Translations under genes and position numbers: made by a program
The notes under the pieces: generated by a model
What the model saw: only the letters and a program-made list of their open reading frames with translations
The model's database searches: none
What the model was told of the DNA's origin: nothing
NCBI RefSeq assembly: GCF_003334315.1
Contig: NZ_QOWR01000039.1
Reading direction: 5' to 3' (one strand)
DNA: 44,728 bases
Source of the DNA: Escherichia coli
GTDB lineage: Bacteria > Pseudomonadota > Gammaproteobacteria > Enterobacterales > Enterobacteriaceae
In this document: positions 36,533 to 41,358 of the stretch, in pieces
How the letters are laid out: each line of letters opens with the position of its first letter
Numbering within the stretch: the first letter of the stretch is position 1

Positions 36533-36821
36533 TGTAAATATTCTTCCGTTGTAAATGGCGCTGGAAAATTTCTCATCAGTGAAACCTTCCGGAAGTTTCC
36601 CCCCCTTGTATGATGTATATCGCCAGTATTTTATTTCATCCCGGCTGTAATTTTTATATTCCCCGGCACGTGCAATAACGCTGACCAGAGATATAAGGCT
36701 CATTAATAACTTTACAGGTAATTTCATAATTAAATTTCCAGTGAGTGAATTGACAGGTGAGGGGTAAAACTTTCTCTCAGGTAATATATATCTGAAAATA
36801 TTTTCAATAACACCAGACAGG

Positions 36822-36847
36822 AAAAACACCACCACAGGCGGTGGCGT
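36822..36847 (-). terminator. putative terminator of the dynamin-like/patatin operon
   Basis: On the minus strand, ACGCCACC-gcctgt-GGTGGTGT (one G-U pair) is followed by TTTTC. It lies 15 nt after the patatin stop. Confidence 0.6.
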
Positions 36848-36862: not shown

Positions 36863-37933
36863 TTATTTAATCCGGGCCATCGCGTTTCTCAGTGCCAAAT
36901 CTGCCTCTTCCGTTATATCCAGGCTTTTCTGCAATACCGCCTCTGACCGGGTCAGTGCCTGACGTGCTGCCAAGGGGTTCCGGATATGCTCCATCGTCAG
37001 CATCGTGTCTTCATAGCCCTGCTGACGCCAGATGTCGGTATGTGCCGATGTAAAACTGAGCAGACCGCCACTTTTGCCTTCTTCCCCTGTGTGTTTCAGC
37101 CTTTTCCGGGGACGGATTTCAAGGATTGTGGTGTCCGGAAAAGCCCGGCGATCCCATAAAGAACCGTCACTCAGATGCGTCACAATCACCATATTGCATC
37201 CGGCATCGACCAGAGGCGTTACAGGGGTATTTCCCTGCATATTTCGCCATCCTCCCATCCCACCATCACCGAACATTGTCCCCTGAACCTCACGGGGATG
37301 GAACAACAGGGGCAGTGCGGCTGACGCAAGCAGAGCCTCTTTCTGCTGTCCGCGGGGCAGACTCTGGATATGCTGAAAAACGGCGTTTTTCGTGGTTCCG
37401 GCACCCAGTTCAGCACGAATGCAGTCAATAATATCCTGTATGCCCCCTTCTGTGGGGTACAGCGACACATACAGCGGTAGCCCGTCTGCCAGAGCATCAG
37501 TATCAAGATAATGATCCATCAGCGCTGTCAGAGGCTCATCTGACAACAGCGGCTGAGCCATCGGATTGTCGAAGCCGTTGATTATCGATATATGGCGAAG
37601 AAGTATCGTAAGCAGTGCTCCTGCACGTCCGGGGATCTGGCAGAGGTTCATTGCCTGGAACAATTTTTTCAGCAATGAAAAGTAAACCGATCGGTTTACC
37701 GACAGCACCTGATTATTCCCCAGATGATCCCAGAGCGCCTCCAGGCGTACGGCAGCTTCTGACAGATCGGGAGAGGCCGCGATAATGGCACCATTGAATG
37801 CGCCAATGCTGGCCCCTGAAACCATGCTGATCTGTGTACCACACTCTGCCAGTGCCTTAACCACTCCCGCCTGATAAGCGCCCACCGCCCCGCCACCGGA
37901 CAGCACCAGCCCCGTTTTCATTTCTGTACTCAT
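36863..37933 (-). CDS. patatin-like phospholipase
   Basis: It has the oxyanion-hole motif LSGGGAVGAYQAG (aa 11-23), the nucleophile elbow G-A-S-I-G (Ser42) and the catalytic D-G-G (Asp223). The ATG overlaps the upstream stop (ATGA). Confidence 0.88.
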   Translation of the reverse strand: MSTEMKTGLVLSGGGAVGAYQAGVVKALAECGTQISMVSGASIGAFNGAIIAASPDLSEAAVRLEALWDHLGNNQVLSVNRSVYFSLLKKLFQAMNLCQIPGRAGALLTILLRHISIINGFDNPMAQPLLSDEPLTALMDHYLDTDALADGLPLYVSLYPTEGGIQDIIDCIRAELGAGTTKNAVFQHIQSLPRGQQKEALLASAALPLLFHPREVQGTMFGDGGMGGWRNMQGNTPVTPLVDAGCNMVIVTHLSDGSLWDRRAFPDTTILEIRPRKRLKHTGEEGKSGGLLSFTSAHTDIWRQQGYEDTMLTMEHIRNPLAARQALTRSEAVLQKSLDITEEADLALRNAMARIK

Positions 37934-38835
37934 GCAGCCCCCTTCTGAAATATTTCATCGACCATACTTTCAGAGAGGCGTTCTGCAGAGCAGAGGCGAG
38001 GCATGCGAACCGGTAAGTGTTCTGCAGCCTGCGTGGTTGACCAGATCACCGGATGCTGCTCTTCACTGCACCAGTCTCCCAGCCAGTTAATCGCGTCATG
38101 CCACTCGTTATCTGCCTGCTCCCGGCCCTGACCACCAAGCCAGTCCAGAGTGTTCAGACGCACGGTTGCACTACCGCCACTCTCCTGTGCCATCTGCGTT
38201 AATGCTTTATGTCTGAGAATATCCAGTAGCTGGTTAACCTGGCCTGTTTCGCTCTGACGTATCACATCACCAAACGCGCCCCAGCGAAGCTCTTCAAGTG
38301 CCACATAACAACGTCCGGCAGGGGAAAATGACGCATATCGCCCGGCGCTCCACCATGAGAATATCTGCTCAAGATGTAACTGCGCCCGCTGAACCTGGTC
38401 AACACGGTGGAGTTTTTCTTCAAGATGATTCAGTTTATGGTGAACCTGATCGGCCAGGGTGAGTAACTGCTCCCGCGTATCTGCGGAATAATGCGCCAGC
38501 CTGGCTGTATCACTGACCAGTGAACTGACCCTGTCGTTTACCCGGGTAATCGCGTAGTTTGTGGTGGCAAGTGACGTTGTCATCTCCGTCAGCCAGCGCA
38601 GGGACGCCTCAACGCCCTGTGCAAGCGACGCATTGATGGCATTCTGCCGTGCAGCGCCTTCGCCGGTCAGCCCCTCTTTTAAACGCCGGAAGAACGTGCG
38701 CTCTCCGGCCGTGCGGATATGCTCCTGTGCAACATCGATTCCGTTTGCGAAATCAACCACAAATTTTTCAGGAAGACAGGTGAGTACCTGACATACCCGG
38801 TTATCAGCAATTTGTTGAATAAATGGTGAAGTCAC
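37930..38835 (-). CDS. YjcZ/RdcB-like protein (partner of the dynamin-like GTPase)
   Basis: The 301-aa protein has a central coiled-coil-like segment (..REQLLTLADQVHHKLNHLEEKLHRVDQVQRAQLHLEQ..). Its size, position immediately after a YjdA-like GTPase and motifs such as ..GEGAARQNAINASL.. and ..ALEELRWGAFGD.. recall E. coli YjcZ (RdcB). The GTG start overlaps the upstream stop (GTGA). Confidence 0.6.
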   Translation of the reverse strand: MTSPFIQQIADNRVCQVLTCLPEKFVVDFANGIDVAQEHIRTAGERTFFRRLKEGLTGEGAARQNAINASLAQGVEASLRWLTEMTTSLATTNYAITRVNDRVSSLVSDTARLAHYSADTREQLLTLADQVHHKLNHLEEKLHRVDQVQRAQLHLEQIFSWWSAGRYASFSPAGRCYVALEELRWGAFGDVIRQSETGQVNQLLDILRHKALTQMAQESGGSATVRLNTLDWLGGQGREQADNEWHDAINWLGDWCSEEQHPVIWSTTQAAEHLPVRMPRLCSAERLSESMVDEIFQKGAA

Positions 38836-41228
38836 AGCATTGTCTCCAGCTCTTCCCTCAGCGCCTTACTGTCAGTAATGAGCTCAGGAACCCTTTCATT
38901 TAATGCCTGAAGTCGCCCGGTAAGTCGTTCCTGCGCCTGCTGATCGCGTTTATGATCTTCAGAGCTCTGAATCAGCGTGTTACGCAGTTGTTCAACTTTC
39001 TCCCTGAATGCGCAGAAAAAGGCATCGATTTCCTGGCGGACGGGCTGGTTAATATCCTGCTCAATGGATGCCTGCAGCTCCCCGAAATATGCCCGGGTCA
39101 GTGACATAACTTCCTCTCTGACCTTGTTGATATTGATCACGCTGCGACTCACATCCTCGTCATAGTTTTCCCAGCCCAGGTCACTGGTGCCAAACCATCG
39201 ACAAACGGTTCCCCATACGCCACTCTGCCGACGGCGACGGGTGACGGTCTCCGTTCTTTCCTCCATAAGCGCACTCAGATTTATTTTTACCGCGAGCCGG
39301 GTCTGTAACTGGCTGACTGCCGGAAAACTGATTTTTACGGTAAAGCCCTCATCCTCCAGGCGGGCATTGATGCGACCGGCAATGTTTTCTGTGGCGTACA
39401 GGGCCGTGCCACGAAAACCTGTTTCAATCCCGCTGACGATTTTCTCCAGCTCAGGCCGGAACTGTGCTTCAGCCTCACGGTGCAGGCTGGTCACGGTCGA
39501 TTCGATTTGCGTCATCAGTTCAAGGGCTTCCCTGCGATCACTGAATTTTATTTCGGGGCTGTCCGGGGCAAAATCTCGTTTCCTGTAATCCTCCCGGCCC
39601 TGGTTGTTGATACCGGACCATTGAGAAATTTTCCCCCATAATCCGGACTGAGACCTTCGTTGTTCTGCGTCTTCTTCCTCCAGCATTTGCTGTTCTTTGC
39701 GTTTACCGCTTCTGAAATAGTCATTCAGCTCCTCTTCCAGTGAGGTGCAGACCCCCGTCAGTAATTCCCGGGTTTTAGTATCGATCTCCTCCATGGCCAT
39801 TCTGACATCAGTGGTCATCTGCTCCTGACAGTCCGCGATTTCCCGGATATCCGCAAGCAGGCTGGTGATATGCGACTGCAGTGACTGAATGCTTTGCTGT
39901 AGCCCCTGATGGCGTAACAACAGGTATTCACTGATATTTTCTGCATTCTGCATCAGTTTTGCGGCGGCAGAGTCAACCGCCAGTGCCGCAGCTCTGGAAT
40001 GTGAGCTCTGTATGACTTCCGTTATCAGTTGATCGATAAGTGAGCCTTCCCACAGGTCTGTCGCCCCTTCAGTTGCCAGTTCACTGTCTTTACAGACGTA
40101 TTCTTTTTTCATGCAACCGAAGGCACCTCTGATAAAATCATCGACCCAGGCTTCATCAACAGGAAGGGTTCCGTTTTTCCGTAACTCATGAAGCGCACGG
40201 TTAGCCAGGTATGCCTGGCGTGAGGATCCGGGATAAACGCGGGAGGCGGGCAGCACATCGCTGTTCAGCATTGCCGGAACTTTCTGGCGTACGGCATCTG
40301 CCCCATCGCCATTGCGGTCTTTCTCATCAAATTTATTGACCAGTACAAACAGGCGGCCGGCTGATACGTCAGCAATGGCATTAAGCTCTTTACGGACGTC
40401 TTCATCCGCTTTTGAGTTCATCTGGGTGTAATCCATCACAGCCAGAACCGCAGAGGCTTTCTGCAGTTGATCCCGCATCATCACTTCCATCTGCGGTTGT
40501 CCGGCCTCATTAGGGCCGGGGGTATCCAGCAGTGTGAGTGTTCCCTGGCATGCATCCATCCCCACCAGATGGCTGAATTCCACGTCGATCACCGGCAGTT
40601 TCTGCACTTCTGCGTATTCATCAAAAGGAAATTCAGTCCCCATTGCCGCAGCAAGACGAACCAGATCGTTTAACGATGCCAGTCCGGTAAAGATTTCCTC
40701 CTCCCCGTGGTATTCATTTTTGAGCCAGCCATCATCCGTCAGAATATCCAGCAGTTCGCGGGTATCCCCGGTTTGCTGCAGGGTCTGTGCGACCTGCTGT
40801 CCTGCCGGGGTGGCGAGTTTTTCCTGCAGTGTGATTAATAAATTGCGGACAGGCTGAATATGTTCCAGATGGAGAACCGGCTCAGTTTTTCCGGGAACGT
40901 GGCGGATGAGCGTCGGTACAGAGGTCATGGGGCGGTTACGGTTAGGCAGAATTTCCTGCCCCACAATGGCGTTGATGGTGGTTGATTTGCCTGCTTTCAT
41001 CGTGCCGACAACAGCCAGCACCATCTCCCTGCGGGCGGTTTTGATTTGTTCGCCCTCCAGCTCCTCAATTCTTTTCAGTGCTTTCTGTTTATCAAAAAGC
41101 AGTCTGTTTTCGTTCTTACTGTCAGATAACACATCTGGCTCCTCAACCATTTGCCGGAGCAGATTAATGTTCAGTTGCAAAAGTCGGTCGGCTTCATCAC
41201 AAAGCAGGGCGATGTTCTTTTCGTGCAT
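38832..41228 (-). CDS. bacterial dynamin-like GTPase, CrfC/YjdA(RdcA) paralogue (798 aa)
   Basis: G1 is GTMKAGKST (aa 75-83; nt 40983-41006), G3 is DTPGPNE (aa 235-241) and G4 is NKFD (aa 298-301). The stretch MVLAVVGTMKAGKSTTINAIVGQEILPNRNRPMTSVPTLIRH is almost identical in pattern to E. coli YjdA/CrfC. The C-terminal half is long and helical. An AGGAAGG SD lies 7 nt before the ATG. Confidence 0.88.
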   Translation of the reverse strand: MHEKNIALLCDEADRLLQLNINLLRQMVEEPDVLSDSKNENRLLFDKQKALKRIEELEGEQIKTARREMVLAVVGTMKAGKSTTINAIVGQEILPNRNRPMTSVPTLIRHVPGKTEPVLHLEHIQPVRNLLITLQEKLATPAGQQVAQTLQQTGDTRELLDILTDDGWLKNEYHGEEEIFTGLASLNDLVRLAAAMGTEFPFDEYAEVQKLPVIDVEFSHLVGMDACQGTLTLLDTPGPNEAGQPQMEVMMRDQLQKASAVLAVMDYTQMNSKADEDVRKELNAIADVSAGRLFVLVNKFDEKDRNGDGADAVRQKVPAMLNSDVLPASRVYPGSSRQAYLANRALHELRKNGTLPVDEAWVDDFIRGAFGCMKKEYVCKDSELATEGATDLWEGSLIDQLITEVIQSSHSRAAALAVDSAAAKLMQNAENISEYLLLRHQGLQQSIQSLQSHITSLLADIREIADCQEQMTTDVRMAMEEIDTKTRELLTGVCTSLEEELNDYFRSGKRKEQQMLEEEDAEQRRSQSGLWGKISQWSGINNQGREDYRKRDFAPDSPEIKFSDRREALELMTQIESTVTSLHREAEAQFRPELEKIVSGIETGFRGTALYATENIAGRINARLEDEGFTVKISFPAVSQLQTRLAVKINLSALMEERTETVTRRRRQSGVWGTVCRWFGTSDLGWENYDEDVSRSVININKVREEVMSLTRAYFGELQASIEQDINQPVRQEIDAFFCAFREKVEQLRNTLIQSSEDHKRDQQAQERLTGRLQALNERVPELITDSKALREELETML

Positions 41229-41289
41229 TATTTAACCTTCCTAAGACGCATTTTCATGACAACCACGGAGGAGGTCATTTACTACAAAC

Positions 41290-41336
41290 GATCGTTTATA
41301 ACGATCGATATGATAGTAACGATCGATGTATTCTAT
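41290..41336 (-). promoter_or_regulatory. three clustered GATC (Dam) sites with an OxyR-like tetrad pattern; agn43-type phase-variation switch
   Basis: GATC occurs at 41290-41293, 41303-41306 and 41321-41324, each as CGATCG. On the minus strand the tetrads ATAG-n7-CGAT-n7-ATCA-n7-CGTT (41336 down to 41300) fit the 4-7-4-7-4-7-4 spacing of the OxyR consensus. The region lies between the predicted -10 and the dynamin-like gene, in the same place relative to yeeP as the flu regulatory region in K-12. Confidence 0.65.
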
Positions 41337-41358
41337 TAACTTGAGAAACACAACGCAA
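41330..41358 (-). promoter_or_regulatory. sigma70-type promoter of the dynamin-like operon
   Basis: The minus strand has TTGCGT (41358-41353), a 17-nt spacer and TAGAAT (41335-41330), about 100 nt upstream of the ATG at 41228. Confidence 0.6.

Follow-up and report, generated by a model that had tools for sequence, protein, structure and literature searches.

The locus raises the question of whether three adjacent genes, encoding a dynamin-like GTPase, a YjcZ/RdcB-like protein, and a patatin phospholipase, act together on membranes and possibly against phages, as a first-pass annotation of this Escherichia coli DNA had proposed. Our data make the triad a strong candidate for a GTP-gated, membrane-attacking defense module, because it is a conserved operon that is found on mobile islands and usually beside anti-phage genes. 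Throughout, the window refers to the whole stretch of DNA that was analyzed (44.7 kb).

The three genes form one operon in an island cargo slot

The ORF calls gave three minus-strand reading frames (798, 301, and 356 aa) that are joined by 4-nt overlaps. The genes and their flanking signals are as follows:

38832..41228, minus strand: gene 1, dynamin-like GTPase, paralogue of RdcA/CrfC (YjdA); 798 aa, ATG start; Dynamin_N and CrfC models
37930..38835, minus strand: gene 2, YjcZ/RdcB-family protein, proposed adaptor; 301 aa, GTG start; Pfam YjcZ
36863..37933, minus strand: gene 3, patatin-like phospholipase, proposed effector; 356 aa, ATG start; Patatin model
41236-41242, minus strand: Shine-Dalgarno sequence of gene 1, AGGAAGG, read from the sequence
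41229..41345, minus strand: 5' region with the Shine-Dalgarno sequence, a weak sigma-70-like promoter, and a cluster of CGATCGTT repeats, from a sequence scan
36820..36846, minus strand: intrinsic terminator 3' of the lipase stop, a G+C-rich hairpin (stem of 7 pairs, 5 of them G-C, 36843-36827) followed by a T-run, tail TTTTTCCTGT

At the first junction (GTGA, 38832-38835), the GTG start of gene 2 overlaps the gene 1 stop, and at the second (ATGA, 37930-37933), the ATG of gene 3 overlaps the gene 2 stop. Both are true start/stop overlaps, and the hairpin and T-run said to follow the last stop were recovered, beginning about 16-19 nt past the end of gene 3. In addition, Shine-Dalgarno-like purine runs precede all three starts (AGGAAGG, GGAGA, and AAGGGGG). 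The three genes are therefore one tightly coupled operon, as the first-pass annotation had claimed. The upstream promoter-like element that it also described fared less well: a candidate is present (TTAATA-18-TATCAT, 41339-41310, score 9/12), but promoter-like matches in the region do not exceed chance (5 found versus 5.4 expected from shuffles). All four CGATCGTT sites of the window fall within 39 bp (41287-41325), and this cluster may be an operator; the plasmid and Pantoea triads have no such repeats upstream.

The operon occupies the cargo position of a CP4-44-like island, in agreement with the variable-island location first suggested, and the same island carries the toxin-antitoxin genes cbtA/cbeA and yeeS. 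Downstream of the triad, the window has genes for small signal-peptide proteins, which do not accompany the triad in other taxa.

Sequence and predicted structure of the three proteins

A profile search matched gene 1 to Dynamin_N (E=2.8e-18, 66.9 bits versus a cut-off of 27), and the protein aligned end to end (1-797) with the NCBIfam CrfC model (NF007368) at 556.2 bits, which bears out its reported likeness to YjdA (CrfC/RdcA). Since the curated equivalog cut-off of that model is 1146 bits, gene 1 is a paralogue of RdcA/CrfC; orthology was ruled out by this score, by the patatin gene in the locus, and by the CP4-44-like island site. The G1, G3, and G4 motifs noted at the outset were all found (G1 GTMKAGKS at 75, including K81; G3 DTPG at 235; G4 NKFD at 298), as was the switch-I Thr102, so that the GTPase-domain signature of the dynamin superfamily (G1, G2 Thr, G3, G4) is complete, and alignments of 21-30 triad GTPase homologues showed these elements unchanged. 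Among PDB sequences, Nostoc BDLP (2j68) matches gene 1 best, and the protein is identical to cluster P0240 (6762 member sequences). Three segments of gene 1 were mapped:

40980..41006, minus strand: P-loop codons, G75-T83, GTMKAGKST, with K81; motif scan, columns invariant in the alignment
39573..39671, minus strand: triad-specific basic/amphipathic insertion in a helical region, about residues 520-552, beginning RRSQSGLWGKISQWSG; alignment
39159..39239, minus strand: conserved Trp-rich motif RRRRQSGVWGTVCRWFGTSDLGWENY, about residues 664-690; alignment

The insertion occurs, with variable sequence, in all 22 aligned triad GTPases, whereas the 12 aligned RdcA sequences have a gap there; we regard it as a candidate membrane-binding segment. 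In the Trp-rich motif, R666, R667, W672, G673, C676, D683, W684, G685, E687, and Y689 vary hardly or not at all, and its DWGWE core is common to triad GTPases and RdcA.

The resemblance of gene 2 to YjcZ (RdcB) was confirmed over the full length of the family profile (PF13990, positions 1-272 of 272), which residues 26-296 matched with E=4.1e-70 and 236.7 bits versus a cut-off of 27. AF2 predicts purely alpha-helical structure for it (pLDDT 77.5): one long helix spans residues 59-163, and the C-terminal domain is helical as well. Neither sequence nor fold searches returned a solved relative, and hhalign showed no homology to the GTPase stalk. The RefSeq label of gene 2, "diguanylate cyclase regulator," is a name transferred by homology, and no link to DgcE is visible at the triad locus.

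Judged by its sequence, gene 3 is a patatin phospholipase with an intact Ser42/Asp223 dyad. It matched Patatin (PF01734) with E=1.8e-24 and 87.4 bits versus a cut-off of 27.7, and it holds the three catalytic signatures previously attributed to it, namely GGGAVG at 13, GASIG with Ser42, and DGG with Asp223. Across 32 lipase homologues, no variation was seen at the patatin motif positions G13-G15, G18, S42, D223, and G224-G225. The codons of the dyad are located as follows:

37808..37810, minus strand: catalytic Ser42 codon (GASIG); motif and alignment
37265..37267, minus strand: catalytic Asp223 codon (DGG); motif and alignment

The AF2 model (pTM 0.75) combines a patatin core with a hydrophobic cap at residues 75-130, where confidence is low, and with a C-terminal helix of 60 residues. 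Its nearest solved folds are PlpD, CapV, CapE, VipD, and ExoU, with patatin and cPLA2 also matching.

The triad is conserved, mobile, and patchily distributed

We analyzed species-representative loci in which YjcZ is at least 35% identical and a patatin gene is present, and found the identical gene order in all 36, with stop and start codons mostly overlapping. Another 5 triad loci from gamma- and beta-proteobacteria bring the number of independent loci with this order to 41, and the junction overlaps are mostly 1, 4, or 8 nt. Given that the order recurs in 41 independent loci and that most junctions overlap, the arrangement is far beyond chance, and the patatin gene is indeed conserved beside the GTPase pair across gamma- and beta-proteobacteria. 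Among four very divergent YjcZ representatives, three lie in full triads and the fourth in a locus with YjcZ and patatin only. In this GTPase-less variant, a YjcZ domain fused to other domains lies directly upstream of patatin, which points to YjcZ as the likely direct partner of the lipase; the neighbors are the housekeeping genes parE, parC, and efp and not a defense island.

Purifying selection acts on each of the three genes, and their rates of divergence are similar (dN/dS versus E. albertii of 0.24, 0.10, and 0.29 for genes 1, 2, and 3, respectively). The triad is present in 2444 of 5426 complete E. coli genomes (about 45%), in up to 5 copies per genome, and many E. coli copies are truncated, fused, or IS-interrupted. 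It also occurs on 44 plasmids (16 of them conjugative), and none was found in phage genomes. Carriers include O104:H4, O145, and O157 lineages as well as Klebsiella and Enterobacter plasmids. The distribution is thus patchy and tied to mobile elements across distant taxa.

Anti-phage genes flank the triad elsewhere

A comparison of 114 ORFs flanking triads with 114 ORFs flanking RdcAB pairs, subjected to the same analysis, revealed matches to 150 PADLOC families in the former and 2 in the latter. The triad flanks contain 7 WYL regulators, 5 JukA, and 2 JukB, together with type I, IIG, and III restriction-modification and DruE, DrmD, DpdE, and BrxH matches; individual triad loci adjoin BREX (BrxL, PglZ), McrB, BrxR, or WYL regulators. 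Hence, the triad lies preferentially by known defense genes, which is an operational mark of defense systems, and the question of whether it sits in defense islands elsewhere is answered in the affirmative. The link to defense drawn from this neighborhood is circumstantial.

Relation to described systems

No PADLOC v2 model matched the triad, in line with the expectation that it corresponds to no system already named. The further claim that it is undescribed holds for PADLOC v2 but not wholly for the literature: a 2026 study (PMC12922286) reported "dynamin family / RdcB family / phospholipase" operons on two islands of E. coli MP1, and found them strongly induced, among the most induced genes, in the transcriptome of Kapi1 lysogens of MP1. 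Its authors named them a putative dynamin defense system, citing DynA and LeoABC as precedents for membrane surveillance and vesiculation, and the same operon type occurs on pathogenicity-type islands such as PAI-CFT073-aspV (PMC12922286). The literature that we searched contained no functional test of the triad and no phage, membrane, or vesicle phenotype. To our knowledge, E. coli genomic-library selections against T4, lambda, and T7 have reported no such system, though the operon is common.

The closest known system is RdcA (YjdA/CrfC)-RdcB (YjcZ)-DgcE. Its first two components are homologous over their full length to genes 1 and 2, which keep the same two-gene order and coupling. RdcA is cytosolic with GTP and moves to the membrane when GTP-free, and it binds RdcB constitutively, the pair activating a membrane enzyme (PMC13463826, PMC6510439). 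There, the GTP state of the GTPase governs its recruitment to the membrane, and the constitutively bound YjcZ protein is required for activation of the membrane-associated enzyme. In RdcA, the nucleotide-free K82A variant is active and the GTP-locked T103D variant is dead (PMC6510439), and for this reason the K81A variant of gene 1, put forward earlier as a control, is probably no straightforward null mutant. The two systems differ in that identity is only 30-41%, below the NCBI equivalog cut-off, and the triad GTPase has the extra insertion. Moreover, the triad has its own output enzyme, whereas RdcAB acts on the unlinked DgcE, and it is mobile and patchy, whereas RdcAB is a core gene of the flagellar regulon. 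All 41 enterobacterial RdcAB loci that we analyzed are without a patatin lipase, as had been stated for the housekeeping yjdA-yjcZ pair. In our trees, triad-type YjcZ proteins form clades separate from RdcB, and RdcAB is one clade nested within triad diversity, which suggests that the housekeeping pair may descend from such a triad.

Other systems share single components. Eleos (LeoA/LeoBC) and the LeoABC proteins of ETEC have dynamin-superfamily GTPases, lie on mobile islands, and are associated with defense genes, but Eleos has neither a YjcZ protein nor a lipase; it was ruled out, as LeoBC scored 19.8 bits over residues 29-89 (the P-loop region) only and LeoA gave no match. B. subtilis DynA is likewise dynamin-like and, as cited in PMC12922286, is implicated in membrane protection and population-level phage resistance, but it is a two-headed fusion whose action involves neither a lipase nor a YjcZ protein, and the NCBIfam DynA model gave gene 1 only 28.7 bits. 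Gene 3 shares its patatin fold and Ser-Asp dyad with the CBASS effectors CapV and CapE, its nearest solved defense-related structures, which degrade membranes and are inactive until signaled; their activator is a cyclic nucleotide, whereas that of the triad is presumably a protein switch. CBASS was ruled out because the annotated neighborhood has no CD-NTase gene and the CBASS_lipase model gave 18.6 bits versus a cut-off of 200; PADLOC phospholipase effector models scored at most 20 bits against gene 3. Legionella VipD (activated by Rab5) and Pseudomonas ExoU (activated by ubiquitin), both among the structural matches of gene 3, are patatin-like phospholipases switched on allosterically by a protein partner, which for VipD is a GTPase, and VipD has been solved in complex with Rab5. 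Unlike gene 3, they are secreted, use host-protein cofactors, and have no genetic linkage to their activator, and identity is 14-17%.

A proposed mechanism and its alternatives

We postulate, with about even confidence, that the triad is a self-contained three-protein conflict module of integrative islands and plasmids that works by abortive infection, with the GTPase as switch, YjcZ as adaptor, and the lipase as output. By analogy with the homologous RdcA-RdcB-DgcE system, the dynamin-like GTPase would be sensor and nucleotide-state switch, the YjcZ/RdcB-like protein a stoichiometric adaptor, and the patatin phospholipase the output enzyme. With GTP bound, the GTPase would stay cytosolic and the lipase silent. 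During attack by a phage or another mobile element, a trigger, possibly a drop in GTP or energy charge or a membrane perturbation, would empty or remodel the GTPase; GTPase and adaptor would then assemble on the inner membrane, perhaps aided by the triad-specific insertion, and license the lipase, whose hydrolysis of phospholipids would stop or kill the cell. The model is supported by intact motifs, purifying selection, the strictly conserved and translationally coupled gene order, mobility, defense neighbors, the precedents of RdcA and of the CapV, CapE, and VipD folds, and induction in Kapi1 lysogens, whereas the physical complex, GTP gating, trigger, and lethal outcome are inferred. The GTPase-less variant among housekeeping genes speaks against it, as do the library selections against T4, lambda, and T7 mentioned above. 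In addition, RdcA is a regulator and not a killer, so a switch related to it does not have to end in a lethal output.

An unlikely alternative is non-suicidal membrane repair or remodeling, in which the GTPase would seal or reshape membrane hurt by phage or another stress, as DynA does, the cell would survive with lysis delayed, and the lipase would supply local lysolipids and fatty acids that favor curvature, fission, or fusion. This fits the dynamin superfamily membership of gene 1, the amphipathic insertion, and the membrane surveillance and vesiculation precedents (DynA, LeoABC) as cited in PMC12922286, and the defense-island context suits it equally well. However, the nearest characterized relative, RdcA, is a GTP-sensitive switch and no membrane remodeler (PMC13463826), and the nearest patatin folds (CapV, CapE, ExoU, VipD, and PlpD) are membrane-destroying effectors or toxins. 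Moreover, the GTPase-less variant retains YjcZ and patatin, which makes the lipase, and not the dynamin, the apparent core.

We give rather less credence to a physiological signaling or adaptation module, in which an RdcAB-like growth-phase GTP sensor would switch on the lipase as a fitness or virulence trait of the island, serving stationary-phase membrane turnover, release of outer-membrane vesicles or toxin (the role proposed for LeoA of ETEC), or interaction with the host. Homology to a switch that couples GTP level to a membrane enzyme, carriage on pathogenicity-type islands (e.g., PAI-CFT073-aspV), the variant in a housekeeping neighborhood, and the signal-peptide proteins downstream in the window are consistent with such a role; yet those secreted proteins do not accompany the triad elsewhere, it occurs unevenly in distant taxa and in association with mobile elements, defense genes fill its flanks and not those of RdcAB, and WYL regulators typical of defense operons adjoin it. 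Finally, a selfish addiction cassette, with a latent lipase toxin restrained by the GTPase and adaptor that penalizes loss or silencing of its island or plasmid, is improbable despite the toxin-antitoxin genes in the island, the plasmid copies, and the many broken E. coli copies expected of costly genes, given purifying selection on all three genes, catalytic motifs kept in both enzymes, a 2.4-kb GTPase that would be an elaborate antitoxin, and neighbors that are defense and not maintenance genes.

Implications for bacterial immunity and the RdcAB switch

Extending the abortive-infection model, we tentatively propose that the triad may be a widespread unnamed system in which GTP or energy collapse in the infected cell would signal through the dynamin sensor and YjcZ to the membrane-destroying lipase, and that RdcAB, the housekeeping regulator of c-di-GMP synthesis in Enterobacteriaceae, may be its domesticated descendant, which lost the lipase and was rewired to DgcE. 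Nearly one in two complete E. coli genomes has the operon, yet it is absent from PADLOC v2. If true, the proposal would bring a new kind of activation to bacterial immunity, in which a protein switch governed by GTP state takes the place of a nucleotide second messenger; it would also give bacterial dynamins a concrete biochemical output and the RdcAB-DgcE biofilm switch an evolutionary origin.

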